Part shown: positions 1,758 to 37,780 of the stretch, piece after piece | Numbering within the stretch: position 1 is the stretch's first letter | How the letters are laid out: each line of letters starts with the position of its first letter | Source of the DNA: a virus | Reading direction: 5' to 3' (one strand) | Length of the DNA stretch: 48,352 nucleotides | Virus record (IMG/VR): IMGVR_UViG_3300024243_000002 | Made by a program: the position numbers and the translations under genes | Notes under the pieces: generated by a model | What the model was told of the DNA's origin: nothing | The model's database searches: none | Seen by the model: the letters and a program-made list of their open reading frames with translations, nothing else

Positions 1758-1789
1758 AAGGGGAGACTATTAATCTCCCCTTATTTTTA
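1758..1789. terminator. Bidirectional intrinsic terminator between the convergent arms
   Basis: Perfect 9-bp stem AAGGGGAGA (1758..1766) / TCTCCCCTT (1774..1782) with a 7-nt loop. ATTTTT follows on the plus strand and an A-run precedes it (a T-run on the minus strand). It sits between the plus-strand stop at 1752 and the minus-strand stop at 1787. Confidence 0.75.
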
Positions 1790-4700
1790 ATCTAAATTAT
1801 ATCTTGGTTGTTTTTTAATAGGTAAATATCTATAAGGCCCTGGCCTCCATAAGTTATTTTGCACAGTCTTCAAGAATTCCATTTGAGCATCTGGTTGTCC
1901 AGGATTATCCTGCATTCTTTTAAATGCAGTTGCTGTACCTGTTATTTTATTATAAATACGAGGAGCGCCTGGTGCTGTTTGATACAAGAGTAAATTAATT
2001 ATATTCGTAGTGGCATCTGTGCCATATTTATACTCCATTGAAGATCGATTTACATTAATTCCCGTTGTTGCACGAACCAGCTCAGACATGTCCTCTCCAA
2101 GAGTGCCGTCATCAAGTCCGGCTTTGACCAATGCAAATCCAATAGCCTGTGGTAATTCTTTTCCGGTTGGTCCCATAAAGTATTGAGGCAACCCGCTCCC
2201 CCAGCCAATTCGATTACGATAATTTATAACATCTTGCTCGTCGAGATAGCCAGAATTGACTAAGCCGTTCAACTTATTGCCATGAGTGCCTGCATATCGA
2301 ACAAGATCCCTTGTCATATCAATTGCTGGTATGCCTATAGGGTTGACACGCTCTGCAAATTGAAGAGGAACAGGAGCATCGTCATCACCACCGAGTGCTT
2401 GCAATAGAATGCCAAGTCCAAAGATTGTACTAAATGCAGTATCTGGGTTAAATTTATACTCTTGCTGTGATTGCCACGTGGTGGGCGACCAGGCATTTGA
2501 TATTTGTTTATTAGGACTCAATCCCATATGATCGCCAGCCTGTATCTCTGCAAACTTATCATGAACCATATACTGGCCAATGGCCTGAATATTTCTGGTA
2601 TAGTGTACCAATTTAGTTAAGAAAGCAGTAGCGGTATTGAGATCCAAATCAGATCTATTTAATTTATCATACAAGAATTGAGTTTCTACAATTAATTTAT
2701 GACCAGCAGCAGAAGATGCTCTTTCGCGGTATCTCCTAAATGCAATATCAATACTTTTTTCAGTAGCCTTTTTACCAACTACACTTTCAGGATCTATTCC
2801 AAATCTTCGATAAGTATCTACTGATAGATTTGTAAATTCTTGCTTCTGAGAAGAGATTTGATCCCATACTCTAGCAGCTCCTGCTCTCCAGGCTTTTTGC
2901 CTTAATGGAGTTTCTACTTTACCCATTAAATATAAAAGCTTATTAGCGGTAAAGCCGACAACCTTTTCTGCTGTTTCAAGTCTGTCTTTTGCAGCAAGTC
3001 CTAATTGTTCTCTTACTTTTGGCTGTAAGTATTGAGCCCATTCGTTCCAGTCAGATGAATATGGATCGTATTGATCCCTGTTTTCAAAGTCGACAAACTC
3101 TTTACCTGCTACGGCATTGAATTCATCTGGCGACCAGCGAGCTTCTCTTGGCGTTCTCGCGTCTCTTACTCCGGTTTTTGCCGCCAGCATTGTATGGCCA
3201 CCAACATGGTTAACTATTGAAGTAATAGGAGAAAATACAGACAGAACACTAGCTGTTATGCCTGCCAATACCATTCTTCCAAGTCTGGAAATAGAGCTTT
3301 GATGAGGAGACGCTTGCATTTTGCTTGCATGTTGTTCAAGCATTAATCTTACCGAATTTGCATACTCGATATTTTTTAATCGATCTTCTTTAGATCCAGA
3401 AAGAATAATCAATTTTTCTAATCCGTTATTAACGTCGAGCATTGCATTCCACATCTTTTGTGTTTGCAAGAAATCAATGCCCTCTGCAGCGTGTCCAGCC
3501 ATTACGCCCACCATATTGAAATCTTTAAGTCTGACACTATGCTTTGCTTTATCTTTTAGTTTTGCTTCAAGATTTGACATAAACCTATCTGTATTAAAGG
3601 AGGCTTGGCCGGCAGGATCTATATCAAAGAAGTTCATGTTCGTGCCAATTTGTTCTCCCTGTTCAGCTATTGCTGTTGAGAGAGCAAACTGAAGGCCTAT
3701 CCTGTTTGCTGGGAAGTAAATGTTACCAGATTGGATTTCATCAATCATATCATCTATTCTCTTAAACAGTTTTGTTTTTTCTGCAACATCTTTAATTCCA
3801 GATTGCTTTTCTGCCAGCCTACGAATTACCTGCCTTGCTTCCTGCAAACCTTCTGCCGTAATCTCTGCCTGGTAATCAAAATAATCAATCATATTATTCG
3901 CTATAGCTCTTTCAGCAGTACCCTTTCCGGTAGCCAGGTCGCGAGACTGCAACATGCCAATAATCTTATCAACAGTTTTTGTTCTATCAACAAGCCTTTG
4001 GCCGTTTTTCCCGCGCTTCGGTATAGTTATTTCTCTGCCATTTCTATCAGCACCGATTTCGATCTGATAAATTGGAGAGAACCCAGCCCCTCCATCTGTT
4101 TGCCCATATCTTGCTACGCCATCAAACATATCAGCCATGGCCATTAATGTAGCCCCGGTTTGCCCGGCAATAGGATCTGAGCCTTCTCTTAATGAAGCGT
4201 ACAGCCTTTCTATTGAAGTAAGGTCTTCAGTAGATGCTCCGGCGTGCTTGGCAAGAGACAGTCTGTTTTGGATTTCAGATATGCGAGACATAATAGATTT
4301 TAAATCATTATGCCCAGCAGGGAAATTATCTTTTATCGATTTTTCTAAATTAACAAGAAGTGAAAGTGATTGACTTCTATGCCGCTTCATTTGACTACGA
4401 ACTATATTTGAAGTTTCAAATAGATGTTCAAAGTGTGGACTATTTTCAGCCTTTTGTCGAGGAAGAGCATTGCTGTATAGCCAGGCTGCTGCTTTATCAA
4501 CAACTCCCGTTGTCTCGCCTCCGGCAGCAAGAATAGTTTTATTATAATGCTTCTCCCCATACTTCATGTGTTCAAGATGTTTAAGAATCTGGAAAACATC
4601 CTGCTCTTTTAATGGTTCTCGATTTATATTTATATTATACTGCTGCTGCACCCATCCCCTAAAGGCAACTTCAGGTTTAGATCCACCTTGAGACATACTT

Positions 4701-7700
4701 AATATGCTCTGAATCCATGGATCATACCGTACTATATTATCAATTTTAGCTAAACCTTTATTTATATGTATTGTTTCTTTGGGGTCCGCATCTTCTCCGG
4801 TACTTACTCGAATTTGATCACGCAGCTGTTCCTGCTGCTTAGTCAGGCTTCCATAGGAGGCCTTCCTGCCTTCGCTGTAGCCAAAGCCGGCACCAAGGGC
4901 GCTTGGGTTGTCCCCAGCACGTAAATGTCTCAGCATACGCCTTGTGTGAGCTACCGTGGCCCTGTCTGCCGCAGTTGCCATATCTTCTGAAAGCGGACGC
5001 ATATCATCAAATTCTCTTTCAAATTTCTCCCTAAGACTGCTTTTCTTTTCAGCAACAAGAGCTTCCCATGATTTATTATTAAACCTACCCTGCATCTTGC
5101 TTCTTAAAGAAGCCTGAACTTGCGGCTTGCCTATTTCGTTATTAACAGACTTAGTTACTTTCTCATTAAATATATCTTCTTTTGCTCTACGAGCTTTTTT
5201 CATTTCAGAATAATACACTTCGGACGTATACGGAGAGCGATCTAATCCCTGGGAGTCCAGCCTTGTGCTCGTCTCTTTGAATAAAGAATTATCTGCTCCA
5301 CCGAGAGCATCGCCAATTGTTTGCTTAAATTCAGCAGTTCTTAACCCGTTTATTCTTTGGGTAAAGTCTTGTGGATTCATTACAAGAGCATTGCGAGAAT
5401 ACATTCTGAGTATTCCAGTTGCAGCGCCAACCCACTTAGGGATTCGTCCGCCCACAGTAATTCCATCTATTTCACTATTAATTGATTCACCTTCGACCAG
5501 AGAACCTTTACCTTTAAATCTGTCTATGTCCTTACCGGCTATCGGTAAATTATAAGTAGCAGTAAATTCGCCGGTACTGCTTGCGCCAAGGTAATGACTT
5601 GACGCACCGTCTGAAATAATCTGCTCAAGAGCAGAGAGTGCAGCGCCATCGCCTTTGGAATAAGCGCTATTCAATAGCTCATAAGTAAGTATCGCGTCCT
5701 GATGATTCTTGGCGAGATAGCCCATTACAGATCTCAGTAATTGATTTTGCATATTTCTATGTATCGGAAGAGCCTTGCCGCCTACTGCAATTGTTCCCCT
5801 ATCTTTGCCGAGAGGACCAGTTGACAGTAGCGCATATGTAGCATGATAAATACCGTCACCGTCTTTATCCCACTTTTCATAGAATGTCCTGACAGCTTCA
5901 TCGGAAGCCTTCTGCACTGCGTCCCATGTCCACTTATCTTTTGCGTTACCAGTTATAGCCTTTTTAGCAAAGCCTTCAATGGTATCAATAATCTTCCTGG
6001 CATGTTGCGCTCTCGCTTTTCCAGTAAATGTATAGGAATGAGGATCGGCAAACAGCCTTGCTGCAGTTCCAATTGAAGCCTGGGCCACAGCAGTAGATCT
6101 CATCTGTACTATTTGATCAGGCATTAGTACATGCTTACGCTGTTCTCCATTAAATATTGCCTGTACTTTTTCATAAGGAGACTTCGTTGGACTATTATCA
6201 AATACGCCATTTGCGTCTGGTTTATTAAACTCAGCATGAGTAAGTATCCGCATAGCCATTTTCTCAAAATTAGTACTCATCCGTGTTTGGTTTTTGCCTG
6301 GATATGAATTGGCGAAATCAATAGTAGGATCTATTAATCTCAGCGCATCCGATGTAAGCTCTGATTCAAAAGTAGCATTCTCATTTGTGTACTTTTCATA
6401 TACTTTTTTATTTAATTTATTAATACGCCGCAATGACGCAAAGGTCATATTCTCAGAGTTCTCAGGAGTAAGCAATCTAAGCTCTCTTCCCTTGGGAATC
6501 TTAACTCCATTATTTCGCAGCATCACCCCGAAGAGAGTATTGAGATTGTTGCTTGCATTTGGACTATCCACCAAAGCAGCAAGAAGAAGATTGTCAGTAA
6601 TAGTTTTTCGTTGTTGCCTGGAGGTGTATCCATTTACATCGCCAACTTTCTCTGCGAAGTCAAGCATTGTCTCAAGAATTTTCTTTTCTTGACCTCTGAT
6701 CAAATTAGTAAGTTCAGCATCTCCGGTAATGCTATTCAGCCATCCATTAGGATCATGCATGATTACTTCTTTAACAAACAAGTCGCGCATTTCCTTGTAT
6801 GTCATATTGGTGCCTTTAGAGGCGGCATCAATAACAGCCTGAACATTATTGTCTTGCATTTGCAGGAAATCAATATCCGCAGTTAACCTTGAGTGAGTAC
6901 TTCTCTTTGGCCCAACAACAACAGACTTTCCGCCCTGAGTTAAGTTTACTCCAAATCCGTCAGCCAGAAACGCCAGTGCATTGCTCAACTTCTGCGTAGT
7001 GCCTTTTGCTTTCTCAAGAACAACGGCGTTTTCTGCAAGCTTCCTTGAGCTTTTCCCGCTAAACCATTGATCAGACTCCATCGCTGGAGGACCTATCTTA
7101 CGTCTTTGCTCATAAACGCTAAGCTTTGTATCTGCGGGCTGCTTGGCATTGCCATACGCCCAGCCATCAGCGATAGAATTCATGCCTATAGGATTATGTG
7201 CCATCGTTTGATCGCCATCAAAGTCCCTATCCATAAGAGCAGCTTTTTCTCTCCCCATGAAAGCATCGCTTTTCTTAGAGTCATACCCCAATACGTAGTC
7301 CAATTTACTTGCAGCGAAATCTTTAGATGGATAAGTTTTAGCACCAGCAACCATGCCAACCGAAACTGTTGCGAGTCCTTTATTGCTTGAGAAGTTTGGT
7401 CCGTCAAATTGATCTCTTCCCAAATGAGGCCTTGCTTCATGGTCGTATTTTCCAAGGAAAAAATCAAGCGCATTTCTGACTGCGCCATTAGTAATTTTCC
7501 TGGACGCAAGCTCGGCTCTTAAGGCCTCTCTTCCAGAGAGCCTTCCGATACCTTGCCCGGCATATATTCCATTCTCTCCAGACATAATATCATTTTCTAT
7601 TTCCCAAGAATCAGGAAGCCCGCTGGTGTCGCCGCTCTCTATTGCCTTTTTCCCAAGTGCTATTATGTATTTATTAAGCTCTGCCAGCGCTTTCTCTTCT

Positions 7701-10700
7701 GCTGGGACAAATCTTTTATGTGGAGTTTTCGATGCTACTTCTGCTTTTCCACCAGACAGTCCAGCCTGCATGTAGTTATACATCAGCGCAGCCAGCCTGC
7801 GCTCAGCCGTAACTTTGGCGCTTCCTGAAAGGCCTGCAGCCTCAAGAAACTTTGCAGCATGAGCAGTTGCTTCACTCTGGGCTCTGCCTAACGAATTTTT
7901 TAATGAACTCCTAATCGAATCAAGAAGTAAGTTCTCTCCGGTCTTTGGTAATTCATTTAAATCTAATTGTTTCCCAATATCAAATTCACCAAATCTATAA
8001 GAGTCATTTTTAAAGCCGGCAACCTCTGATTTGCTTAACTTAATTCCCTTGCTGCCAAAGAATTTAATATTATGATCGATAGCATTATTTGCCGACCCCT
8101 CTTTGTCTGCAGAATAATCCTTGAAAGCGAGAACAAAACTAGAAGCATTATCAATAACTGTTGAGCCGTATTCAATACCCCTATATGCCTCGTTGCCATC
8201 AAGAACACCCGACACGACCAAGTGACTAGCTCTCGCAGCTTTTTCTGCCCTGGATACGCCCATTCCATTTGCCCAATTAGTGATAGCATTAATACCCATG
8301 CCTGGCGACCACTCTAATGTACCGCCAGATGATACCCACTCATAAAGTCCAGATTCCTGCGCAATGCCAGGATCAATTCCAAGACTTCTTTCAAAGAAAT
8401 TTGACAACTCCTCGGCTGTAGCAGCTCCACTTAAAATATTAATATGTTTATCAAGCGCCGCATTAAATACTCTATCTAAAAAAGCATTCGCTTCTGCCTT
8501 TGAGTCTGGCCCCCTGTACATATACTCTGTAAACTTTTGAGAAGTTCTATTGTTTTCAACGCTGGAAATATTATGAAATTCAAAACTAGATAATGGAACA
8601 TCTATAATACCATTGTTAGTATTAACCTTAACCTCATTCCATCTTCCATTCTGTAGCGCCAGCCCAGCCTCTGCGTAATCTATAGAGGTTCCCTTGTGAG
8701 AAAACTCTACTGCAGGTATGTTTTTAGGCATCTTTCCTGTTGATGAAGTGGTCAAGAACTGAACGCCTAGCTCCTTACGTAACGCCGTAAGCTTTGGACT
8801 GTCAACTATCAGACCTTTATATAGTCGCTCTACGCCGTCAGGCCCGCTCATAATAACAGAAAACTTGCCGGTTGATGCATCGCCCTGTACTCCGTGAAGA
8901 GTGTGTAGCAGGTCAATTTCGGCTCTTGAGGCAATGATAGCGCCATCGTCTAATTCTGTTATGCCTAATTCTTTCGCCCTATCCTCTGGTAGCAACTTCA
9001 GAATATCAATAGATTCAACATGTGCAACTTTAACTTTACCATTTTTTGCGAACTCTGCTCTGTTTACATTCTCTGAATTTGTATGCAATACTTCTGCGAT
9101 TAGATCAGTAGGAATAAATCTACTATCGGCAAGCACCCTTGATACATGCTCGCTGCTTGTTGTGCGAGAGCTTGGATTGTTGGTTTTCGTTGCATATTTA
9201 TTTGCCAGACTTTGCCATCCAGCGCTATCGTTAACTTCTGCTAAAGATTCAAGCCCAAAAGTATGAACATTGGATAACCTTGTAAGGCCTTCTGAGATTA
9301 TAAGCTTTTCGCCTATTGAAAATGCGCCGCCATCTGAATTTTCTATAACATTAGCAGCATCTATAATATCACTAACGAATCCCTTCAATACAAAAGCTTC
9401 CGGCCTGTTTTTTGTAAACTTATCTATTTTGCTAGCCATCGATAGCAAGTATTTATCGGTTCCATTTTCCTTAAAGTCCCTGCTCCCAACCATCGCTGGC
9501 TCATTAATTCCCTCAGTCCGGAAAGTAATAAAATCATCTCTTTGTTCGCCGTCAATAGTATATGATGTATTCATTAATTTTTTATTATATCTAGGATTGG
9601 TAGCCCCTTCTTTTGTTAACGGAGACTCACCCTCAATCGTAGCGCCAGTCGGCATTATAATTGTAGTCTCATTGTGTTCACTGCCAAGAGCATCTGCCAT
9701 TCTTGTGATAGCTGTTCTTTCGGATCTAACCATGTTGCCAACTACACCAGAAACTTTTGTGTTCCCGTCTATCATTGCGCTCGGAGATATGACATATACA
9801 TTTCTTGTAGATGTTGCTTCTCTTATTAAGTTTATCTTTGCCAATTCAGCATTGTTTTTAGTTTTACTATTATGCTTAACATTACGCAAGTTGCGTATTC
9901 GCTCTATAACAACATTAATCATTTTTCTATCTTGTCTTGTGCTCTCATCATATAGTAATTCTTTGCGAGCTTCACTTTCGGAAAATACTTTTTCATTAAT
10001 CCATCTACTCAGTTGCGCATCTCCAATTAAAGCAAGCTTGCTTGTTAATCTAGGAGATAATCCAGGATCTATTATAGACAATGAGTTGCTCATTAAAATA
10101 GTATCTAATTTATTGTGAAGTTCTGATTGTGTATACTTTCCCTCTTCGACAAGATTCCTAACTTCCGTCAGAACATTTTCTTTTCCATGAGAGGATAGTC
10201 CATAAACATCAAACAGATCTTTTGTGGATTCAATTTCGAGATTGCGCGAGCTTCTGGCATCGACTGCTGCCTCGAAGTCACCAAGGCCCATAAGAACTTT
10301 ATCTTCTGCAAAGCCAGCTTCTCCACGCTTAACATTTAGCTGCCTCAGAATTTCCCCAACATCACGCCTGGCCTTGCCAAGATTGGCACTCGGTGAGATT
10401 TTAATCTTAACCTTGCCATGTTTACCATTAATAAAAGTTAAGCCATTTCTTTCAAGAGCCTTTTTCGCTTTATCAAATGCGAAATAGTCCTCCCTTCCTT
10501 TTCCAAGAGAATACATCATAGATCTTAACGTGTGCTGTATTTGACCTATCTCGGTCCTTGTCCTGGTACTGGTTTTAATATTTCCAAGAGCTTCCTGTAT
10601 GGCCTCAACATCGCCCCTCTCGTAAGCGTCCACCATTCGGACATATCCCATGGCGGCTTCTTCAAGGTTTCTGTCGTGGCCAACTATATTAGTAATCTCA

Positions 10701-13700
10701 GCAGACGCATCTGCTTCAGTAGTTTTTACAACTCCATCAATAGCGCCGATCCGTTTAAACTTACCAAGCATTCCTTGTTCCGTAAGAGCGTATCTATCTG
10801 GAAGGCCTTCGTCATATAACAAATTATTTATATATTCTATATATGTAGTTTCTTTCTCGGACCCAGTAAACATAGTTGGGTCCTTCATAACAATGCCGTC
10901 TTTTGTCAGCTGAATTATTCCTTGATTTTGAAAATGATTATTAAACGCCGATACCCTGTCCGGAATTCTACCAAACGGCAACTGCTCTTCGCGGATTTGA
11001 TTTGCAACAGTACTTGAATAGCCCGGTACATTTAAATGAACGCCCAAAGTATTAACTAAAAGATCTCGCATAGTTTTCTTTTGAGTCTTTAATCCAGAAT
11101 CAAGTTCTATTGCGAATTTATTACTCCACCATTTAACTAATTGAGAAGCATCGCCTTCTTTGTATTTACTCTTTGCTCCGCCAGGCATAAACCTAACATC
11201 GTTCCTTCTAGACATTATTTCCCAGAAGCCCCTCATCTCTGCAACCATAGAATCAATATCACCAGACAACGCATTTGGATATTGTTTTTTAAACGCCCTT
11301 TTCATTCCAGCGCCACTTGGCAAGGCAACCATTTTCCAGATCTGTCTTCCGCCAGCATCCTTTCCTCTTATAATTGGAGACTCATGAAGTGAGGACGAGC
11401 CGCTATTGGCTTTTCCAATAATCTTATCCATGGTGACCGAAACTGTTTTATGTCCGCTCTCGCCAAGATCATGATTGTACGTAAATATATCAGTCATAAA
11501 CTTACGAGCGCTTCCTATTGCAGACTGCTCATAAATAAGACTATGTATAGACGAGTATCCGCTTTCTGTATCCATATCATGAATATAATCTTTATGATTT
11601 TTACCTATATGCTCTTTAGCTAACGATTGAACCGCATCCACATTATTCATTAAAATTTCATACGCAGCAGCGCCTTCTTTTGTTGCAATATCAACAGTCT
11701 TCGCATCTGCTATAGAGCCTTCTATGCGAACTGATTTAGATAGAGTATCGACATGCAGAAGACCCATATTAGCACGATAAGATTCCTTGGCAAGCCTGCT
11801 TACGTCTTCCGGCCTGTCGTTTTTAGAATCAATAAACTTCACATAGTTATATTTATCTGTCTGAATTACATCATCGGAATTTCTGGCTCCGTACACCTCC
11901 CGCCCATCATCAAGAGCCTGCGGTACACTGCTGTCAATTGAATCGGCAAGCTCTAATACTGCCTGCCTGTACGACCTCCTGAAGACATTATGCCTTACAT
12001 CTTTAAATATAAACGAATCGCCTGGAGCAATTAATCTTTGAGCAGAAAGCTCTTTCTTTAATCTTTGAACCATAGAAAACTTGGCAGCATCGGATAGCTC
12101 TCCAAGAGTGGTCGCGTCCGTGTCAAGCGTTATGCTGTCCTTGCTGAGAAGAAGACCGCTAACTTCGTCTTCTCTGAATTTGGCAGTTCGCAATAGCCGA
12201 ACCCAATCAGTAAACCCGTTGACCTCTTCTTTGTGCAAGTCACCTTTGGGGCCAGACGGATCATACGCCTCACCACCCATCTCTTTTATCATTACATTAT
12301 TAACTTCATCTAATAATTTAGGATTCTCAATTGCCATCTCAATAAGTTCTTCGGTAGTTTTGCCATCAACCTTTACAGTTTTCTCAATAGCTCTTTTGAA
12401 AATATCACCAACAGCTTTATTGGTAGCGTCAACTGCGGCTGGCACAGAATCATTGTTTATATATTCTGCAGGAGTTAGTTTCTCATGTTGAGTTGGGTCA
12501 TACGCAAGCTCCTTGTCGTACACTCCCCATAATCTAGCAACATCTCTGGCTTCATTTATTCCCTGTAATCTTAATGCAAAGTTTTGGCTTTCAACTCCAA
12601 ACCCAGCGCCATAATGAGAAGCATCCAACATGGAGAAATAAGGTTCTTTTGTCGCAGAGTATGCAAGCCCGTAATGAACCATAACATCCGCTACTGATCT
12701 CATTGATGGATCGTTTACCATTCTTCCCAAAGTAGACATTTGACCAGCAGATTCTAATCCTCTTTCTATGTCCGGCTTAAAGAGTGATGAGCCATCGCTG
12801 TAGTTCATCCCCTCTGTAGCGCCATAAAGGAAATGTTGCTGAGTGTCGGTTACTAATCCAGTCCAAAGCCCAAGCATACCACGCCTGCCAAGATCGCTAA
12901 AATAAACCTTACGCATCTCGGCCATCTTCTCGGCCACAGGTATAAAGTTTGCGGCGTGTTTTTTAGCTATCTCTGCAGCAATCTTTACTTTTTCGGCACC
13001 AGTTGCTCTGTCAATTGCATTCGCCCAAACACCCAGCTGTAGCCCCGATGTTCCCTGTAGCAGCTTGCTGGCAGATTGCCTTGTGCCTGAGCCCATGCTT
13101 GCAGACATGAATCTAAGCAGCTCTGATAATGCAGCTGGATCTTCCTTTGCCATCTTGTCAAAATCTATGCCGCCATGTTGTTTTAACGCAGCACCGAATC
13201 GCCTAGTTCTTCGAGGTCCGCCCTCAGCACCCTTGCTAAACAACGCCTTCATTGCTTTTCCGAAAGCACCAGACTTGCCAAACAATCTTGAGTTCGCGCT
13301 ATCCATTCCATAAAACAACTTATCGGCTATCTTTTCACCGGCAAGAATTCGTTCCGTGCCTGTAGCATTTGTCTTGCTAATGCCAGCCAAGATAGAGTGA
13401 AGTGTATCCGTGCCCATTACATTTTTTCTGGCAAACCCAGGCTGAACCCTAAGCTTTTTAAATATCTCAAGCCTTGATAATGGCAATGCTCCACCAAGCA
13501 GCCCAAAACCAGCACCGATAGTTGCGTCATTAAGAATACCATGGAAGTATGCTCGTCTCAGCCATCCTTCTCCCTCTTCCTTGTGGAAGCCGTGTCCGAG
13601 GAACATGTTCTCAGTTGCATTCAGCAAGTTCTTCACTGTGCCGCTGGCTGAAGACCATTCCTCTTCTTCATACCCATAGTCACCTGGATGAGTAATCGCT

Positions 13701-15301
13701 CCAGTTAGCCTATGCGTAGCTGCCATAGAGACAAGTCCGGCAGCATGATTTGCTGCTCTTTGAGTCATATGGGCTACATTTGAACCAAATCTGCCAGTAA
13801 ACTTATCACTCCATCTTGTAATAAGCTTTGAAACATCAGCTCCGTCTTTGCTAAATGCTTTAATCCAATCATCGCCTGCAATTGAAACCATTCTGCGTAT
13901 TTCTTTTGGACCCAGCTCTGGATGAGCCTTCATCAATTGCTTGGCTAAATCTGTTCTGAAAATATTACTCATACTGGCAGTTAACTCTTTTTTAAGATTC
14001 TTAACTGTACCCCATGCACCGGCCTGCGCCTTTGAGCCAGTCGCTATGGTGGCCTCTACCGCCTTGTCAGAGGACTTCTTTATCATCTTACCCACTACAT
14101 CGTCTGTGACGCCAAAGATCTTTGACAGCTCACTAGAGACACCTTTAGCGGCTTCCTTTGAGCCAGCCTTGCCAAGTACTCCTAATTCTGTACCAGAAAG
14201 GCCTCTGCCTGTACTGCCGATTACCCTTTTGATGCCAGTGCCACTTGCAGCCTTCGCATTAATAGATAACTTGCCGAACCTTTGCCCAAGTGAATGTAGT
14301 GATAGGTTTTTGTTTACCCATTCAAGAGTTTTAATTCCAACTTCAGGTGCCGCATTAACTGTTTTCGTAATCTTGGTATCTTTTTGAGCAAGTTTAATTG
14401 CGTCCATCATGCCAGGAAACCTATTAATCTCTTTAGCTACATCATCGCCGCCAGCTGCCAGCAAACGAGTTGCTTCTTTGGCTATGGCTTTAGTGCCGCC
14501 TTTAGATGCAGTTTTTTCTGCCGATCGTAGAATGCCAGAAATAAGCTTAGATTCACCTTTTGCTTTGTCAATAGACTGAAGAACCTTTAAAGTCTTTGTC
14601 GCCTTTATTCCTTTGCCAGAAATCTGCAGCGCCTTCAGCCCGGCGATAGCCCCCGAGCTTATAAACGTACCTGCAACCAGTCCCGCAACTTGGCCACCAT
14701 ACGCAGCAGCTCTACCGGCATCTGATCTTGGATCGCGCATCGCGTCAACCATATTCTCTCTAAACCAAGCGTCTCCACCAAGAGCCTCAATGCCTTTATC
14801 GACACCAGAGGCAACCCCCTGTGCGAGCAATGTTGTTAAGCCGGCAGTAAACGAATCAAACGTATGATAAACCAATGCGGCAGTAGCGTCACGCGCCGCC
14901 TCAATTGGAGTAACATCTTCGTCTGTTACATTAACGCCGCCGACCCAACCGCTCAATAGAGTCTCGTCCATTGTGCCGCCAGCCTCATTCCATGCAGGCA
15001 ATCCAGCTGGACGCTGTGGCTGCTGCAGATCTCCACTACTTAACGCAGTTCCCTGCTGTCCCTGCTGCTCGCTAGCGCCAGCAGCAGACAGAACCTGCCG
15101 TAACTCATAGTTTGTTATTGAATCTCTATCGGCAGTAGATAGCTGCTCCTCAAGGCCGACCATTTTTTGATCGATCATTTTCTGGAGATCATTATCGTTC
15201 TGTCTAAAGTATTCACCGTTGGGACCACTCAGCAATTTCTGCTTAATGTCATCCCTCGCGCTCTTGCTTTGGAGCCCGGTCAAAACTAATTTGCCTTGCA
15301 T
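1787..15301 (-). CDS. Giant virion-associated protein (4,504 aa) with a beta-prime-like DFDGDQ catalytic motif; putative ejected two-barrel virion RNA polymerase fused to internal-core/ejection modules
   Basis: Uninterrupted ORF. Its ATG lies 3 nt after the stop of the upstream gene (TAAAACATG), with GAAGGA upstream. DRDFDGDQTMAHNP at aa 2691-2704 (nt 7190..7231, frame checked). Hydrophobic segments at aa 197-225, 4010-4041 and 4289-4305. It is the last gene of the structural operon. Confidence 0.8.
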   Translation of the reverse strand: MQGKLVLTGLQSKSARDDIKQKLLSGPNGEYFRQNDNDLQKMIDQKMVGLEEQLSTADRDSITNYELRQVLSAAGASEQQGQQGTALSSGDLQQPQRPAGLPAWNEAGGTMDETLLSGWVGGVNVTDEDVTPIEAARDATAALVYHTFDSFTAGLTTLLAQGVASGVDKGIEALGGDAWFRENMVDAMRDPRSDAGRAAAYGGQVAGLVAGTFISSGAIAGLKALQISGKGIKATKTLKVLQSIDKAKGESKLISGILRSAEKTASKGGTKAIAKEATRLLAAGGDDVAKEINRFPGMMDAIKLAQKDTKITKTVNAAPEVGIKTLEWVNKNLSLHSLGQRFGKLSINAKAASGTGIKRVIGSTGRGLSGTELGVLGKAGSKEAAKGVSSELSKIFGVTDDVVGKMIKKSSDKAVEATIATGSKAQAGAWGTVKNLKKELTASMSNIFRTDLAKQLMKAHPELGPKEIRRMVSIAGDDWIKAFSKDGADVSKLITRWSDKFTGRFGSNVAHMTQRAANHAAGLVSMAATHRLTGAITHPGDYGYEEEEWSSASGTVKNLLNATENMFLGHGFHKEEGEGWLRRAYFHGILNDATIGAGFGLLGGALPLSRLEIFKKLRVQPGFARKNVMGTDTLHSILAGISKTNATGTERILAGEKIADKLFYGMDSANSRLFGKSGAFGKAMKALFSKGAEGGPRRTRRFGAALKQHGGIDFDKMAKEDPAALSELLRFMSASMGSGTRQSASKLLQGTSGLQLGVWANAIDRATGAEKVKIAAEIAKKHAANFIPVAEKMAEMRKVYFSDLGRRGMLGLWTGLVTDTQQHFLYGATEGMNYSDGSSLFKPDIERGLESAGQMSTLGRMVNDPSMRSVADVMVHYGLAYSATKEPYFSMLDASHYGAGFGVESQNFALRLQGINEARDVARLWGVYDKELAYDPTQHEKLTPAEYINNDSVPAAVDATNKAVGDIFKRAIEKTVKVDGKTTEELIEMAIENPKLLDEVNNVMIKEMGGEAYDPSGPKGDLHKEEVNGFTDWVRLLRTAKFREDEVSGLLLSKDSITLDTDATTLGELSDAAKFSMVQRLKKELSAQRLIAPGDSFIFKDVRHNVFRRSYRQAVLELADSIDSSVPQALDDGREVYGARNSDDVIQTDKYNYVKFIDSKNDRPEDVSRLAKESYRANMGLLHVDTLSKSVRIEGSIADAKTVDIATKEGAAAYEILMNNVDAVQSLAKEHIGKNHKDYIHDMDTESGYSSIHSLIYEQSAIGSARKFMTDIFTYNHDLGESGHKTVSVTMDKIIGKANSGSSSLHESPIIRGKDAGGRQIWKMVALPSGAGMKRAFKKQYPNALSGDIDSMVAEMRGFWEIMSRRNDVRFMPGGAKSKYKEGDASQLVKWWSNKFAIELDSGLKTQKKTMRDLLVNTLGVHLNVPGYSSTVANQIREEQLPFGRIPDRVSAFNNHFQNQGIIQLTKDGIVMKDPTMFTGSEKETTYIEYINNLLYDEGLPDRYALTEQGMLGKFKRIGAIDGVVKTTEADASAEITNIVGHDRNLEEAAMGYVRMVDAYERGDVEAIQEALGNIKTSTRTRTEIGQIQHTLRSMMYSLGKGREDYFAFDKAKKALERNGLTFINGKHGKVKIKISPSANLGKARRDVGEILRQLNVKRGEAGFAEDKVLMGLGDFEAAVDARSSRNLEIESTKDLFDVYGLSSHGKENVLTEVRNLVEEGKYTQSELHNKLDTILMSNSLSIIDPGLSPRLTSKLALIGDAQLSRWINEKVFSESEARKELLYDESTRQDRKMINVVIERIRNLRNVKHNSKTKNNAELAKINLIREATSTRNVYVISPSAMIDGNTKVSGVVGNMVRSERTAITRMADALGSEHNETTIIMPTGATIEGESPLTKEGATNPRYNKKLMNTSYTIDGEQRDDFITFRTEGINEPAMVGSRDFKENGTDKYLLSMASKIDKFTKNRPEAFVLKGFVSDIIDAANVIENSDGGAFSIGEKLIISEGLTRLSNVHTFGLESLAEVNDSAGWQSLANKYATKTNNPSSRTTSSEHVSRVLADSRFIPTDLIAEVLHTNSENVNRAEFAKNGKVKVAHVESIDILKLLPEDRAKELGITELDDGAIIASRAEIDLLHTLHGVQGDASTGKFSVIMSGPDGVERLYKGLIVDSPKLTALRKELGVQFLTTSSTGKMPKNIPAVEFSHKGTSIDYAEAGLALQNGRWNEVKVNTNNGIIDVPLSSFEFHNISSVENNRTSQKFTEYMYRGPDSKAEANAFLDRVFNAALDKHINILSGAATAEELSNFFERSLGIDPGIAQESGLYEWVSSGGTLEWSPGMGINAITNWANGMGVSRAEKAARASHLVVSGVLDGNEAYRGIEYGSTVIDNASSFVLAFKDYSADKEGSANNAIDHNIKFFGSKGIKLSKSEVAGFKNDSYRFGEFDIGKQLDLNELPKTGENLLLDSIRSSLKNSLGRAQSEATAHAAKFLEAAGLSGSAKVTAERRLAALMYNYMQAGLSGGKAEVASKTPHKRFVPAEEKALAELNKYIIALGKKAIESGDTSGLPDSWEIENDIMSGENGIYAGQGIGRLSGREALRAELASRKITNGAVRNALDFFLGKYDHEARPHLGRDQFDGPNFSSNKGLATVSVGMVAGAKTYPSKDFAASKLDYVLGYDSKKSDAFMGREKAALMDRDFDGDQTMAHNPIGMNSIADGWAYGNAKQPADTKLSVYEQRRKIGPPAMESDQWFSGKSSRKLAENAVVLEKAKGTTQKLSNALAFLADGFGVNLTQGGKSVVVGPKRSTHSRLTADIDFLQMQDNNVQAVIDAASKGTNMTYKEMRDLFVKEVIMHDPNGWLNSITGDAELTNLIRGQEKKILETMLDFAEKVGDVNGYTSRQQRKTITDNLLLAALVDSPNASNNLNTLFGVMLRNNGVKIPKGRELRLLTPENSENMTFASLRRINKLNKKVYEKYTNENATFESELTSDALRLIDPTIDFANSYPGKNQTRMSTNFEKMAMRILTHAEFNKPDANGVFDNSPTKSPYEKVQAIFNGEQRKHVLMPDQIVQMRSTAVAQASIGTAARLFADPHSYTFTGKARAQHARKIIDTIEGFAKKAITGNAKDKWTWDAVQKASDEAVRTFYEKWDKDGDGIYHATYALLSTGPLGKDRGTIAVGGKALPIHRNMQNQLLRSVMGYLAKNHQDAILTYELLNSAYSKGDGAALSALEQIISDGASSHYLGASSTGEFTATYNLPIAGKDIDRFKGKGSLVEGESINSEIDGITVGGRIPKWVGAATGILRMYSRNALVMNPQDFTQRINGLRTAEFKQTIGDALGGADNSLFKETSTRLDSQGLDRSPYTSEVYYSEMKKARRAKEDIFNEKVTKSVNNEIGKPQVQASLRSKMQGRFNNKSWEALVAEKKSSLREKFEREFDDMRPLSEDMATAADRATVAHTRRMLRHLRAGDNPSALGAGFGYSEGRKASYGSLTKQQEQLRDQIRVSTGEDADPKETIHINKGLAKIDNIVRYDPWIQSILSMSQGGSKPEVAFRGWVQQQYNININREPLKEQDVFQILKHLEHMKYGEKHYNKTILAAGGETTGVVDKAAAWLYSNALPRQKAENSPHFEHLFETSNIVRSQMKRHRSQSLSLLVNLEKSIKDNFPAGHNDLKSIMSRISEIQNRLSLAKHAGASTEDLTSIERLYASLREGSDPIAGQTGATLMAMADMFDGVARYGQTDGGAGFSPIYQIEIGADRNGREITIPKRGKNGQRLVDRTKTVDKIIGMLQSRDLATGKGTAERAIANNMIDYFDYQAEITAEGLQEARQVIRRLAEKQSGIKDVAEKTKLFKRIDDMIDEIQSGNIYFPANRIGLQFALSTAIAEQGEQIGTNMNFFDIDPAGQASFNTDRFMSNLEAKLKDKAKHSVRLKDFNMVGVMAGHAAEGIDFLQTQKMWNAMLDVNNGLEKLIILSGSKEDRLKNIEYANSVRLMLEQHASKMQASPHQSSISRLGRMVLAGITASVLSVFSPITSIVNHVGGHTMLAAKTGVRDARTPREARWSPDEFNAVAGKEFVDFENRDQYDPYSSDWNEWAQYLQPKVREQLGLAAKDRLETAEKVVGFTANKLLYLMGKVETPLRQKAWRAGAARVWDQISSQKQEFTNLSVDTYRRFGIDPESVVGKKATEKSIDIAFRRYRERASSAAGHKLIVETQFLYDKLNRSDLDLNTATAFLTKLVHYTRNIQAIGQYMVHDKFAEIQAGDHMGLSPNKQISNAWSPTTWQSQQEYKFNPDTAFSTIFGLGILLQALGGDDDAPVPLQFAERVNPIGIPAIDMTRDLVRYAGTHGNKLNGLVNSGYLDEQDVINYRNRIGWGSGLPQYFMGPTGKELPQAIGFALVKAGLDDGTLGEDMSELVRATTGINVNRSSMEYKYGTDATTNIINLLLYQTAPGAPRIYNKITGTATAFKRMQDNPGQPDAQMEFLKTVQNNLWRPGPYRYLPIKKQPRYNLD

Positions 15302-15304
15302 GTT

Positions 15305-17200
15305 TTAGTCCTTCTTCTTGTGTGCTGGAACTGTATCCAAATCTTTTATTGTATTCAAAAATCTCTCGTAAGATTTACCCTCATTGCCAGGTGATTTTTC
15401 CCACATAAGGTAGTCGCGGTGTTTTGTTTCGTAGGTAGTCCTGCTCTCCATGATTCCATCTTTCGCAAGTGCCGCCACCTTCGTGTTAAGTTCGTATACG
15501 TTCTCTGCCTGACTGCGGCCATGAACTATTTCGGCATTCATTAGTTGAGCCTTCTCTGCCAAGTTGCCAATACTTTTAGCAAAGCCATCGCCGATGCCGT
15601 TTACTTCTTTGAGCACTTTTCTTGAGTCTCCGGAAAAATCGCCATTGCCAAGTTTCTCAAGGTAGCTTTTGCTGGTAGAAACAAATACGGCAACGCCACC
15701 ACTGTTTTTCGCAGCTTTTTTTGCTGAATTCATGGGTCCGCGCGACCCCTCATTATTTGGAGCTGTATTTTTTATCATGATATATTCATACATGTCAGCT
15801 AATCGGGAAGCTGCGTACACGGCAAATCTAACTTGGCTATCGAGATGTTTAAATACCTGCGTGGTCAGCCCCTTAATTACCATACCACCGGTTTCGGTAG
15901 GCGTTGCCTCTACAAACATATATTTCCCTCTGTCTTTCGACAGCGCCTTGATTATAATATTTCCAGCTTCGGTATAACCAACAATATTACCCCTGGCTAC
16001 AGCATTGCGATTTAGCCCTTGAATACCAACGGCATTAACATCATCCCTATATGATGAGTTCTCGCTATTTGCGCCATTAGAAATCTCCCTAGCCAAATTA
16101 TCAATAAGCTCTTTTCTTGAACTTGAGTCATTAATCACATTTTGCAGCACTTCTTTTTTCGGGGCCATGCCGGTAAATCTCCACTCTCTTTCTCTTCCTT
16201 TATCAGTCTTGTCTCTATTTATAGGGCCATCACCTTGATCTCCATTTAACGCCTTAAATACTTTGGCAGCGTCTTTAACAAAAGTCCTGGAATCACTCCA
16301 AAGAGTATCTATTTTCTTTTCGATATACCAGTCACCCATACCCTTGATTCCCATTTCTTTCAAAGTCTTCTTATCTAGATCTTTGTCAGAAAGCCCATAT
16401 GCAGCTTTATAATTATCAACGATCGTCCGACCATTTGGGGTAAGAGCATTGTAGTCGCCAGTCAAAAGCCCATACATATCATCAGATATAATTTTACCAT
16501 CCGCAATCTGACTTACAAGAAATTCATTGAACCTTTCGGTCTTTCCCGAATCGCTTGTTTTTACGCCTTCCGTTTTATCGTCAGCGCCGGCCGTTATTGA
16601 TTTGGCCCCTACCAGCTCGGCATTCTCTTTAGCCGTTAATTCTGGTTCTACTTGCTGCCAGGCCTTAGACAAAGTTTCTACTAGGTCAGCCTCTTGCTCA
16701 TCATAGTCGGCCATAATTTTTTCGTGATCATTACTTGCATTAATAGAAGCCATTGCTATTTGAAGCAGGGCCTTTTTTTCTTGTGGTCCACCAGTTGCGC
16801 TATACGCCTCGGTGTCAGCATTGAACTCATCAACCTTTTTCTGCCTTTGTTCAACAGCCGCATTATATTTACTCAATGCATCCCTATACGCAATTTCCGC
16901 TTCATCTCTTCCCTCCACCCCTTCCATAATGTCAAGCTCCCTGCCCTTGAGGACGGCCGTCCTTTCCGCAATAGCGGCGCCAAGCTTTGCCTGAGCAGCA
17001 TCGGCTGCAGCGCTCAATGCGGCACGCATCATTTTCTCCTGGCCAGCAATCTCATTTTGTCTGGCATAATTTGCCTCTGCGAGTTTCGCCACGGCGTTGT
17101 TGTCAGCAGCAATAGCTATTTCATTCTCTTTGTGCATGCTGTCTAATGCGATGCTTATGTATTGTGCGGCAGAATCTCCGCCCCTATTTCCAACTCCCAT
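15305..17200 (-). CDS. Internal virion / ejection protein candidate (631 aa)
   Basis: Long ORF in the structural operon. The N-terminal third is Ala/Glu/Lys-rich and looks helical. No enzymatic motif recognised. The role is inferred from position only. Confidence 0.6.
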   Translation of the reverse strand: MGVGNRGGDSAAQYISIALDSMHKENEIAIAADNNAVAKLAEANYARQNEIAGQEKMMRAALSAAADAAQAKLGAAIAERTAVLKGRELDIMEGVEGRDEAEIAYRDALSKYNAAVEQRQKKVDEFNADTEAYSATGGPQEKKALLQIAMASINASNDHEKIMADYDEQEADLVETLSKAWQQVEPELTAKENAELVGAKSITAGADDKTEGVKTSDSGKTERFNEFLVSQIADGKIISDDMYGLLTGDYNALTPNGRTIVDNYKAAYGLSDKDLDKKTLKEMGIKGMGDWYIEKKIDTLWSDSRTFVKDAAKVFKALNGDQGDGPINRDKTDKGREREWRFTGMAPKKEVLQNVINDSSSRKELIDNLAREISNGANSENSSYRDDVNAVGIQGLNRNAVARGNIVGYTEAGNIIIKALSKDRGKYMFVEATPTETGGMVIKGLTTQVFKHLDSQVRFAVYAASRLADMYEYIMIKNTAPNNEGSRGPMNSAKKAAKNSGGVAVFVSTSKSYLEKLGNGDFSGDSRKVLKEVNGIGDGFAKSIGNLAEKAQLMNAEIVHGRSQAENVYELNTKVAALAKDGIMESRTTYETKHRDYLMWEKSPGNEGKSYERFLNTIKDLDTVPAHKKKD

Positions 17201-17214
17201 GATTCAACTCCCGT

Positions 17215-18162
17215 TTATTGTGATACTGTGTCTTTGGAAATCTTAGAAACCTCTTCTACGTGGCTAAGCAATTCGCCAATAACATCATTGACATCTTTAT
17301 CCCCAGAAATCTCGATCTTGCCTACGACTTCCATAATATCATTAACGCGATCTAGATATTCGGAGTTTTTTGCAAAAGTCACCATCATTGCTTCCATATT
17401 AGTTAACGAGCCGGCCTTGCTTGCCATGTTTCTTCCCAAAGCCTCTTGTGTTGTAGACTTGCCTGGGCTTGAAAAATTGCCCCTCATTACTGAAAACATA
17501 GACTGGACTTGATGAAGTAAATTACTTTGTGCTTCATCGCCACCAGACCCGTATGGCTGAAGATCTTTGTTAACTTTCAAAAATGCCTCTGCCGAATTTT
17601 TTAAAATAGTATTATTCCCAGCTTCATTAAGCAAGGCAGTGGCCTTGGCAACAATTTGCTCTGCGTTCATTCCGGTAAAGTTTTCCCCGCTAATAGTTGC
17701 TAAATTATTTCTGGCTTGACTTTGAGCGGAATCAGACATCTGCCTAGTCACTTTACCGTACCCATCAACCTCTGGAGCAAAGAACCTTTCAAATCTACCA
17801 ACAACTCTTTCGCTGAGCTGCAGCGCTGCGTAACCCTTGGCGGCTGTATCTAACGGGGAGTCCATGGCATCAAGCTCCATGTTGGTCTTAGCGAAATCAG
17901 CCTGCATGTTTCCAGCAGCGGCACGCATTTCATTGCTCGCCGTAATGCCGGAAATAGCAGATCGCGTTGTGTCGTGCTTGTCTGTGGCCACCTGCTGGTT
18001 TACTTCCCCGCTAGTCTTCAGCTTTCGCATGCTGGCCTCTAGTGACTTCTCGCCAACACCCGTAGCGTTTGCTTGTCGTTTAAAATATGCCTGGTTCTGT
18101 TGACCAGCAAGCTTCATCGCACCAACCGCCCAGGGAGTAATCTGTGATGTGGTTCTTACCAT
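17215..18162 (-). CDS. Internal virion protein candidate (315 aa)
   Basis: ORF in the structural operon between the fibre gene and the giant gene. No family recognised. Confidence 0.6.
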   Translation of the reverse strand: MVRTTSQITPWAVGAMKLAGQQNQAYFKRQANATGVGEKSLEASMRKLKTSGEVNQQVATDKHDTTRSAISGITASNEMRAAAGNMQADFAKTNMELDAMDSPLDTAAKGYAALQLSERVVGRFERFFAPEVDGYGKVTRQMSDSAQSQARNNLATISGENFTGMNAEQIVAKATALLNEAGNNTILKNSAEAFLKVNKDLQPYGSGGDEAQSNLLHQVQSMFSVMRGNFSSPGKSTTQEALGRNMASKAGSLTNMEAMMVTFAKNSEYLDRVNDIMEVVGKIEISGDKDVNDVIGELLSHVEEVSKISKDTVSQ

Positions 18163-18174
18163 GTCGATACCTTT

Positions 18175-18714
18175 CTATGTATCAGCTAACTTCTTAAGAG
18201 CGCCGGCTTGTCCAAGTGCCCCTACTCCGCTCATTGCAGAGGCTGCAAATCCGCCTACTTTTAAAGCGGCATCAAACATACTTGTTTTTTGTGACTCTAA
18301 TTGAGCCTTTTGAGTAGACGCGGTTAATTCCATTTGGTCTTGCTGTGAAAGTAATCCTTGCCATTGCTGAGACGCTTGCATCTGATCGCGGTCACTAGCC
18401 GTCTGTATTTCAGATATAGCCCCCTGCATCTTGCTTTGATTATCTGACATAGCTGCATTTATCCTACCCTGTCCTATAGAGCTAAGATCCATTGACTTTG
18501 CATCAGCTTCAGCTAACTGAGAATTTTGAGAACCAACTATACCTTGTATTCTCTGTTCAAGCATAGTATTCATTTTCTTAGCACCAAATCCAGCCTTAGC
18601 CCTCTGGCTCAACCCGCTTGCCCTTGCATTATCTATTGCTGACGTTGATACCTGAATGCTATTGATAGCTTTATCTATAGCATCATTGCCTACCAGTTTA
18701 TCAAAAACACCCAT
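18175..18714 (-). CDS. Small Gln/Ser/Ala-rich virion protein (179 aa) with a hydrophobic Gly/Ala C-terminus
   Basis: ORF with a low-complexity, coiled-coil-like Q-rich body and the C-terminal segment VGGFAASAMSGVGALGQAGAL. Its position is analogous to a small internal-core protein. Confidence 0.55.
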   Translation of the reverse strand: MGVFDKLVGNDAIDKAINSIQVSTSAIDNARASGLSQRAKAGFGAKKMNTMLEQRIQGIVGSQNSQLAEADAKSMDLSSIGQGRINAAMSDNQSKMQGAISEIQTASDRDQMQASQQWQGLLSQQDQMELTASTQKAQLESQKTSMFDAALKVGGFAASAMSGVGALGQAGALKKLADT

Positions 18715-21700: not shown

Positions 21701-22177
21701 GCCAGCCGTATATGTAGCGGTCATAGTCTCTTCGTTTATACTAAAACTGTCATATGTGATTTCAATAAAATTATTACCCCAAGTCTTCATCCTTATTCCA
21801 ATATTTTCAACATCCCCACCATTTCCTGCGTAAAGGGCGTAATTGATGGAAACATTAATTATGCAATTAGAAACCGAACTTGACGCCTGAGAAGCTGCGC
21901 CCCTCGCTCTATCTGCACTATCATCCGCTTCAATGCCAACCCTATAAACTTTACCGTCCTGCTTGATACGCAAGTCCTTGTCGTTCCCGACTCCTCTTAC
22001 GCCAACGAGCCCATCGCGATTATCGTACCCGCCATCCCTGCGGATTCTTCCTGGAGGAGTAATATCACGATCTTCATTATGAATACTTTTATCTTCTCTG
22101 CCAGCAAGCAGGCTACCGCCATGCAGGTCGGCCAATGATTTTTCTCGTAGTTCTCTTATTTCTTTACGCGTAACCAT
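18731..22177 (-). CDS. Tail fibre / receptor-binding protein candidate (1,148 aa)
   Basis: Very large ORF after the tail genes. It is Thr/Ser/Gly/Tyr/Trp-rich with several similar beta-sandwich-like modules (for example VPVGTYQIVPQYFSGYVTPGSIVVSV and STVPIGEYAIIAEDD). No database check was possible. Confidence 0.6.
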   Translation of the reverse strand: MVTRKEIRELREKSLADLHGGSLLAGREDKSIHNEDRDITPPGRIRRDGGYDNRDGLVGVRGVGNDKDLRIKQDGKVYRVGIEADDSADRARGAASQASSSVSNCIINVSINYALYAGNGGDVENIGIRMKTWGNNFIEITYDSFSINEETMTATYTAGARLPQPNIVFDLIGIAESGSVPAHTSDGPITLSFNDSSYPLEPEGAYTEDISFMYYPLHTLEIDPRDEDGNILSNAAWELAYSGDPLLPHGGIGPTVLTASHIHDPFTVTWLDLEYHTTPSLELWTPTSIGQLHTFTGVYDFISGTISVTPEDSDGSTLEAPWYINGLSGLFYYGGVGSETVPVPVGTYQIVPQYFSGYVTPGSIVVSVADGEDEATAPIYLTQTTSVITMTRTGPNNFIYPMTLEKPDGGMIDYHGNYAEYLNGSYGTYKLHTEDEPLWDPPSVILGTTSEVVQDLDFVATYVAVPNNSSILAKAEVYNPFDYPVDVDSTSVTDLECEIFEAGVGRSWKEDTRWSTNGPPPFEAENTSPVFDDVCRVVWTAGEADSLPYTYTDNGDTWTNADSGFTIGTGNGADWTNRFARISSTITVTNHLIESLMYFWDRRYCAKIQPHPLSETRRDVMGFMVYKSFSDESADEYVTPVLSMPDKGPYFLQVDRSPRVENNPEYTMMIDWQDIATYTTPPDQPILSYGSDRAEYSTTEGEETGVYEGYYASAIPEDDEVWTILIALNNGTEWQFDATGGTNIDYVRALKRDPDGEESNLDFTYHNGQWDSFTYPAGTSIRVLEWPDLLDFVKPEPTQYGEEVSWTTNYLRGEYKHVRTPTFHINPIHNGNTLDDAVWYLKDSNMDIVLVESGELEFDSDTVGQGFFDYPYTVEFLDSGIYVAPSSVTINEPAGLNYYHDVIALYSNPQYPTGTLTVTPKERLRVGDSWGSYFTEDTTFTVLGPNGYINPEVTGSLVNSTVPIGEYAIIAEDDVLVAGTGNMASYYSVCPAIHTVTVEEDSPGEIECLYEPIDQALPEASVRSWVKLSWAGDTVSGDDDDIWAYQGFGGKKYHVRGASNRVINRYPCSGVIVGDFQISISGPMSLWGNYPNMLIECRLLWGEYEETHAWSEWEEVPRIASSWIFVESFAYSADAWGLSEIEIRVSYV

Positions 22178-26295: not shown

Positions 26296-26298
26296 AAT

Positions 26299-36953: not shown

Positions 36954-37005
36954 AGCTTACCTCTTTCAATGAATACAATAATTACCATAAAGGCTTCTCC
37001 TGAAT

Positions 37006-37098: not shown

Positions 37099-37099
37099 T

Positions 37100-37775: not shown

Positions 37776-37780
37776 TATTG

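Follow-up and report, generated by a model that had tools for sequence, protein, structure and literature searches.

What does a single gene of 4,504 codons do in a virus whose genome is 48 kb long? We addressed this question for the giant open reading frame (ORF) on the minus strand of the IMG/VR virus record IMGVR_UViG_3300024243_000002, a stretch of 48,352 nucleotides (nt) that was analyzed at its full length and is called the window below. A preliminary description of this DNA had proposed that the product, here referred to as the giant, combines an ejected virion protein with an RNA polymerase (RNAP) motif. Our analysis suggests that the giant is most likely packaged in the virion and ejected with the DNA. 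For the fuller reading, in which it would be the largest and last-ejected part of a podovirus-type ejection cassette and most likely contain a diverged two-barrel RNAP, we see an even chance.

A single gene spans more than a quarter of a complete phage genome

The giant ORF runs from an ATG start over 13,515 nt with no internal stop and encodes a protein of 4,504 amino acids (aa), 494 kDa and pI 8.6 that contains zero cysteines. It begins three bases past the stop codon of the preceding 631-aa gene (TAA AAC ATG), and a Shine-Dalgarno-like site, GAAGGA at 15309-15314 (AAGGA at 15309-15313), lies 7 nt before its ATG. Bases 1-128 of the window recur at 48225-48352 as a 128-nt direct terminal repeat; the genome is therefore complete and closes circularly at 48,224 bp, of which the giant ORF makes up 28.0%. 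It is the last gene of a minus-strand virion operon whose block also holds TerS, a metallophosphoesterase, TerL, a P22-like portal, the major capsid protein (MCP) and a 956-aa gene resembling an "internal virion protein". Beyond a hairpin that follows the giant's stop codon (Table 1) lie convergent plus-strand genes, including one for a RuvC-like resolvase. The uninterrupted minus-strand ORF, the coupling junction to the preceding gene, the 28% genome share and the place at the end of the structural operon were all asserted in the preliminary description, and all of them agree with what we found.

The extreme size of the ORF raises the suspicion of an assembly or gene-calling artefact, either a chimera or a set of genes fused by frameshifts. 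However, the identical 4,504-aa protein recurs on independently assembled contigs, at least 10 in number, in ENA, Logan and JGI assemblies that cover different samples and assemblers. Over the 13,515-nt ORF these contigs deviate from the window by no more than 1 nt, a synonymous change, indicating a nearly clonal population. Its protein cluster at 90% identity has 19 members; of those listed, 11, the giant included, have the full length of 4,504 aa, and among these there are 0-11 substitutions without any indel. The coding signature is also uniform along the ORF, with GC1 > GC2 > GC3 by codon position throughout. Because the same ORF recurs on these contigs, its full-length cluster members show no indels and codon-position GC is uniform, assembly error is effectively excluded and the giant ORF is a real gene; we assign the artefact explanation a negligible probability.

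One further cluster member, P0003 (NCBI MBT5421061.1), is a 905-aa fragment of the giant on a 16-kb contig within a metagenome-assembled genome of "Candidatus Cloacimonetes". This placing is probably a binning artefact and could otherwise be a hint to the host.

Position, composition and cysteine avoidance suggest an ejected protein

We consider it most likely that the giant travels in the virion and is ejected with the DNA, because it stands at the end of the operon, closes a cassette resembling those of phages N4 and T7, has hydrophobic segments at both ends and contains no cysteine. This supports the ejection function proposed earlier. The Gly/Ala/Lys/Ser-rich N-terminus with a hydrophobic segment and the two C-terminal hydrophobic segments reported at the same time could also be confirmed. 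Within aa 151-450, G, A, S and K account for 47% of the residues and the charge is net basic; two hydrophobic segments lie in the N-terminal region, and of the two near the C-terminus one is strong and one weak (Table 1).

Across the 5,629 aa encoded by the last four virion genes (179, 315, 631 and 4,504 aa; 1787-18714), not one cysteine occurs (P about 1e-15). Elsewhere on the virion strand, the proteins have 36 cysteines in 5,889 residues (0.61%), which gives P about 1e-12 for the giant alone; for the remainder of the phage proteome, the cysteine content is 0.6-4.8%. A similar avoidance was observed in proteins of the comparison phages, among them experimentally proven ejection proteins of N4 and T7 and the virion-packaged Bcep22 gp75. 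No cysteine occurs in N4 gp50, gp51 and gp52, in T7 gp15 and gp16, in Bcep22 gp70, gp74 and gp75, in the 5,002 aa of P23-45 gp96 or in the proteins encoded by the two virion genes that come last in Microcystis phage Mel-JY34; T7 gp14 has one, and phi14:2 gp65, gp66 and gp67 have one, two and one, respectively. The capsid and tail neighbours of these proteins mostly contain cysteine. Cysteine avoidance may be a general marker of tail-ejected proteins.

The arrangement of the cassette can be compared with that of N4 (Schitoviridae). In N4, gp52 forms the outer-membrane part of the ejectosome, gp51 the periplasmic tunnel and gp50 the inner-membrane/cytoplasmic part; they are analogous to T7 gp14, gp15 and gp16, which function as an envelope-spanning channel (PMC13434306). 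The 3,500-aa virion RNAP gp50 is likewise the last virion gene of N4, convergent with the replication genes and preceded by the portal, the MCP, gp52 and gp51, and the cassette gp52 (150 aa)-gp51 (644 aa)-gp50 is Cys-free throughout. Both gp50 and the giant have flanking regions around a central enzymatic part, which is putative in the giant. By size and position, the 631-aa protein matches the periplasmic-tunnel proteins N4 gp51 and T7 gp15 (747 aa), and the 179-aa protein matches the outer-membrane ejection proteins N4 gp52 and T7 gp14 (196 aa). The 179/315/631/4,504-aa cassette and the N4 series of 150, 644 and 3,500 aa agree in order, size and composition, with no sequence homology. N4 differs in other respects as well: its enzyme belongs to the T7-like single-subunit RNAPs and the motif of the giant to the two-barrel type; the giant's cassette has an extra 315-aa gene; and the giant itself exceeds gp50 by 1,000 aa, in a genome that is 22 kb smaller than that of N4. 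An N4-type polymerase is excluded, as the four Pfam families of N4 virion RNAP domains (PF21894, PF21769, PF21867 and PF21624) match gp50 (E 1e-97 to 1e-22) and do not match the giant at E<=1. In T7, gp14, gp15 and gp16 are also encoded from small to large late in the virion operon; however, the largest member has 1,318 aa with a transglycosylase instead of a polymerase, and a tail fibre gene follows the cassette.

It appears improbable that the giant is a structural protein that is not ejected, for example a tape-measure protein from a siphovirus with a very long tail, or else a giant fibre or adhesin. A model for the tape-measure variant is Thermus phage P23-45, in which the tape-measure protein gp96 lacks cysteine, has hydrophobic segments and includes an RNAP domain with DFDGD; in addition, one weak MCP relative bears a siphovirus-type name (vB_VspS), and no tail genes were identifiable within the window. 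However, distal tail genes follow gp96, whereas the giant is last in its operon: downstream of it there are neither distal-tail nor baseplate genes, and a small chaperone pair is missing upstream. No tape-measure PHROG or Pfam family matches the giant, whereas gp96 matches its own PHROG. A fibre or adhesin would be expected to have internal repeats, and none were found in the giant ORF. The portal, moreover, is P22-like (phrog_156), with 21-24% identity to the portals of Vibrio, Pseudomonas (KPP25 and Itty13), Ralstonia and Burkholderia phages, and its distant relatives Bcep22 and JC1 are documented podoviruses.

A candidate two-barrel RNA polymerase motif

Near its middle the giant carries the sequence DFDGD (Table 1), a candidate for the Mg2+-binding catalytic loop of a two-barrel RNAP. 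Given the composition of the giant, DFDGD is expected by chance 0.0033 times per protein, and it was present in 71 of 20,000 shuffles. When the residues past the motif are compared without gaps, DFDGDQTMAHNP in the giant and DFDGDQMAVHVP in the Escherichia coli beta' subunit are identical at Q(+1), H(+5) and P(+7). The full pattern, DFDGD followed by Q...H.P, has a chance probability of about 6e-8, although it was picked after the sequence had been seen. A phage gene of the sigma-70 family would fit a two-stage transcription scheme.

Three crystallographically proven phage two-barrel RNAPs (phi14:2 gp66, P23-45 gp96 and gp64) are not recognised as RNAPs by Pfam or PHROGs; a missing family match is therefore not evidence against a polymerase. 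In phi14:2, a phage of the crAss-like kind, gp66 (2,180 aa, two-barrel), together with gp67 and gp65, resembles the giant in being large, nearly Cys-free and placed at the end of the structural operon, and its DxDxD likewise lies mid-sequence in an otherwise unrecognisable protein invisible to both databases. The differences are that phi14:2 uses three genes (1,797 + 2,180 + 1,421 aa) in a 100-kb genome in place of one in 48 kb, that the crAss motif is DFD[IV]D whereas the giant has the canonical DFDGD, that gp66 has an upstream R-x-P that the giant lacks, and that the genes of the giant's phage have Shine-Dalgarno sites. Membership in the crAss-like gp66 family was rejected, with no similarity in BLASTP or hhalign and Gly as the fourth motif residue. 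P23-45 gp96 offers another parallel, as one giant Cys-free chain that fuses delivery with a DFDGD polymerase and whose RNAP was first spotted from the motif alone. P23-45 is, however, a siphovirus, and the RNAP of gp96 is N-terminal, has R-x-P and shares no detectable similarity with the giant.

Several observations weigh against a polymerase. Eight residues are described as invariant throughout the two-barrel polymerases (PMC2919709); the R-x-P pair belongs to them, and its presence 20-100 aa upstream of DxDxD was the search filter of Chaban et al. (PMC10770324, Supplementary Data 4). No R-x-P was found upstream of the motif in the giant with the regular expression [RK].P.{20,100}D.D.D. What the giant has is K2655-x-x-P2658, 34 aa upstream of DFDGD, within the range of 32-36 aa at which R-x-P precedes the motif in beta', gp66, gp96 and gp64; the other nearest equivalent, R2624-P2625, is 67 aa upstream. 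A profile of four known double-psi beta-barrels of type A (DPBB-A) aligns with the giant only over the motif +/- 7 residues. The motif flanks score 9.6 bits, compared with 6.0 +/- 2.5 for decoys made by implanting DFDGD into 3,269 natural windows, which places them at the 91st percentile (p=0.09); when left out in turn, rpoC, gp66, gp96 and gp64 each reach p<=0.02 (98th percentile or higher) in this test. The second, beta-like barrel, which in single-chain enzymes lies upstream and carries an invariant Asp and two basic residues, is not detectable above decoys in the giant. Two candidates for this DPBB-B barrel found by eye (Table 1) rank top within the giant under a profile of the P23-45 RNAPs, yet they score below 3 bits where unrelated giant proteins score 3-12 bits, and both were rejected as evidence.

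Beyond the motif, no similarity to any RNAP was detected with Pfam, PDB, BLASTP or hhalign. Single-sequence hhalign of the giant's core against gp96, gp64 and gp66 found nothing, with a method that barely links gp64 to gp96 and misses the link between gp66 and gp96. AlphaFold2 predictions made without homologues had a predicted local distance difference test score (pLDDT) of 36.7 for aa 2200-3050 and 34.9 for aa 2340-2760 and thus provide no evidence of a fold such as the pair of double-psi beta-barrels, bridge helix and trigger loop of the two-barrel enzymes. DRDFDG is also compatible with the generic DxDxDG metal-binding loop; the giant has a second, EF-hand-like motif of this kind, DKDGDG; two such loops stand against about 0.09 expected from composition, which hints that they are real metal-binding loops. 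At database scale, DFDGDQxMA occurs by chance in unrelated proteins, with six chance matches in metagenomes, and a degenerate DNA scan for DFDGDQxMA(H) found nothing in IMG/VR. The P22-like portal is, in addition, the sole indicator of the podovirus-type morphotype assumed in the fuller reading.

The RNAP catalytic motif of the preliminary description is thus present and improbable by chance, while the invariant R-x-P is missing, the flanks reach the 91st percentile and a second barrel does not emerge. Because the rarity of the motif has to be weighed against this missing residue pattern, we give a polymerase activity of the giant, as judged from the motif, roughly even odds.

The strongest rival to a polymerase is an ejected giant virion protein without one, in which DFDGD would be either a chance occurrence or a generic metal-binding DxDxDG loop. 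The payload might then consist of, for example, anti-defence or envelope-penetrating activities as in the "polyvalent" DarB-like proteins, with domains too diverged to be recognised. We give this explanation a considerable probability, clearly below even. Its precedent is found in the Bcep22-like phages (Lessievirus), where proteins of near-equal length are encoded by the last virion gene, followed by a terminator and convergent genes. Bcep22 gp75 (4,602 aa, 21.6% of the genome) and JC1 gp69 (4,515 aa, 22.1%, detected in virions by mass spectrometry) both lack cysteine, and these phages have a distantly related P22-like portal; the distant relatives of the giant's portal include 31 Ralstonia and 10 Burkholderia phage records. 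A further example is Mel-JY34 (PP438425.1), the closest MCP relative, in which a hypothetical protein of 1,894 aa without cysteine (20955-26639) closes the virion operon and faces convergent replication genes; it has no DFDGD and only weak peptidase-like Pfam matches. The missing R-x-P, the non-significant flank and second-barrel tests and the pair of DxDxDG loops also favour a polymerase-free protein. On the other hand, gp75 contains eight Pfam families, and none of its domains (LPD38, LPD3, SLT, Eco57I methylase and SNF2/DEAD helicase) gives a match in the giant at a cutoff as loose as E<=1. Walker A, DExD/H, NPPY and HExxH motifs are likewise missing from the giant, BLASTP of the giant against gp75 finds nothing, and gp75 lacks the DFDGD whose extended pattern, post hoc as it is, is improbable by chance.

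The giant is a sequence orphan

Sequence searches with the giant against Pfam, PHROGs, NCBIfam and PDB gave no meaningful match. Neither half of the protein matched any of 50,697 phage genomes in tblastn, and an exhaustive phmmer search with aa 2000-3199 against 1.84e9 representative proteins returned the giant itself only. Pattern scans of IMG/VR and GTDB genomes revealed no relative, and PDB searches with pieces of 115-160 aa around the motif and the candidate second barrel were negative. In a word-indexed search the neighbouring 631-aa and 956-aa proteins matched only themselves; this search missed the giant's own cluster when queried with aa 2300-3300, and its negatives are unreliable for very long proteins. 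A TerL scan of IMG/VR found one relative with 64% identity, on a 6.6-kb contig that stops short of the giant gene. The giant is therefore a sequence orphan with no detectable relatives. The earlier estimate that roughly 3,500 aa match nothing was right in kind and too low, as no part of the protein matches anything.

Proposed course of infection

By analogy with the systems described above, a few copies of the giant would be stored in the capsid in a loosely folded state. Once the smaller proteins that form the channel have gone ahead, these copies would be threaded through the portal and the tail channel. The N-terminal Gly/Ala-rich segments and the C-terminal transmembrane segment would anchor the giant at the inner membrane, and the central part would refold in the cytoplasm. 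This part would most likely contain a very diverged single-chain two-barrel RNAP centred on D2693/D2695/D2697. The polymerase would transcribe the AT-rich early genes, including that of the phage sigma factor, before the host RNAP is redirected to the late genes.

Table 1. Features of the giant gene and its surroundings in the window (aa numbers refer to the giant unless stated otherwise)
Feature	Coordinates	Strand	Description
Giant ORF	1787..15301	-	4,504 codons, ATG start, 13,515 nt, no internal stop
Upstream junction	15305..15314	-	Stop TAA 15305-15307, then AAC, then ATG at 15301
N-terminal region	13052..14851	-	aa 151-750; Gly/Ala/Ser/Lys-rich, net basic
Hydrophobic segment	14618..14710	-	aa 198-228; Gly/Ala-rich, Kyte-Doolittle peak 1.45
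Weak hydrophobic segment	13460..13540	-	aa 588-614; Gly-rich, peak 1.17
DPBB-B candidate (found by eye, rejected)	8789..8953	-	aa 2117-2171; LDDGAII...KFSVIM...YKGLIVDSP, like P23-45 RNAPs
Alternative DPBB-B candidate (found by eye, rejected)	8030..8200	-	aa 2368-2424; K2413-x7-K2421, KFFGSKGIK
Candidate DPBB-A barrel	7190..7375	-	aa 2643-2704; K-x-x-P in place of R-x-P
DFDGD within DRDFDGDQTMAHNP	7211..7225	-	aa 2693-2697; candidate Mg2+-binding catalytic loop of two-barrel RNAP
Second DxDxDG motif, DKDGDG	5852..5869	-	aa 3145-3150; EF-hand-like
Strong transmembrane-like segment	3197..3298	-	aa 4002-4035; peak 1.76
Weak hydrophobic segment	2381..2446	-	aa 4286-4307; peak 1.19
Hairpin	1758..1782		9 bp, AAGGGGAGA / TCTCCCCTT; 5 nt past giant stop codon, between convergent transcription units
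631-aa orphan protein	15305..17200	-	Cys-free, Ala/Gln/Ser-rich
315-aa orphan protein	17215..18162	-	Cys-free, same block as giant
179-aa protein	18175..18714	-	Cys-free, Gln/Ser/Ala-rich; one C-terminal hydrophobic segment (aa 149-167 of this protein)

Other features of the genome

The two coding blocks of the genome differ in base composition. The minus-strand virion block (1800-36800) has a GC of 0.40-0.47, the plus-strand replication and early block (37500-48352 and 1-1450) one of 0.30-0.35, and the GC skew is of opposite sign in the two. Within the virion block, the metallophosphoesterase gene (34150-35118, minus strand) lies between TerS and TerL; phi14:2 likewise has a calcineurin-like phosphoesterase (gp75) inside its structural block.

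A divergent intergenic region of 750 nt contains an iteron-like array at 37002-37113, in which CTATACTATATAAGCTATACT occurs three to five times at intervals of 7/14/21 nt, and a 19-nt inverted repeat (37100-37118 / 37276-37294). Together they could form an origin or a regulatory hub.

The sigma-70-family gene (43428-44252, plus strand), with Pfam regions 2 and 4, directly follows that of a DnaB-like helicase. The presence of such a gene implies that the host RNAP is redirected for part of the programme. The 17-mer CAC[T/A]TTG[G/A]ACAAAAAGA occurs exactly at 38827-38843 and 39590-39606 (plus strand), upstream of early-block genes, and with 3 mismatches allowed it has 5 matches where 0.8 are expected; it may be a promoter or operator element. 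Scans for sigma-70 promoters revealed no enrichment.

Implications

The unusualness claimed in the preliminary description has to be qualified. The share of 28% for a single gene exceeds that in the Bcep22-like phages (22%), P23-45 (18%) and N4 (15%) and is, as far as compared, the largest that one gene takes in a tailed-phage genome. On the other hand, giant Cys-free proteins that close a podovirus virion operon are already known from N4, crAss-like and Bcep22-like phages, the last with terminal virion proteins of 4,515-4,602 aa, and the fusion of delivery and polymerase in one chain is known from N4 gp50 and from P23-45. What is new here is the complete sequence isolation of the giant together with its record genome share. 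Provided that the motif is functional, a further novelty would be the two-barrel active site with a non-canonical K-x-x-P in the N4-like cassette of a small phage that uses Shine-Dalgarno sites.

From a methodological point of view, the total cysteine avoidance of ejection cassettes is a simple, alignment-free marker that could flag ejected proteins in uncultured phages.

It is just short of evenly probable, in our view, that the giant founds a new orphan family of single-chain two-barrel virion RNAPs lacking the supposedly universal R-x-P. In that case, one polypeptide would unite what is distributed over three cargo genes in crAss-like phages, and a small phage with Shine-Dalgarno sites would have arrived at polymerase injection convergently with N4 and its unrelated T7-like enzyme. 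If the motif works, the giant would represent another independent lineage of two-barrel RNAPs, one that is fused with the apparatus for its own delivery and found in a genome half as large as those of crAss-like phages. It would then bear on the limits to which this ancient fold can diverge and on the number of times that polymerase injection has evolved in phages.

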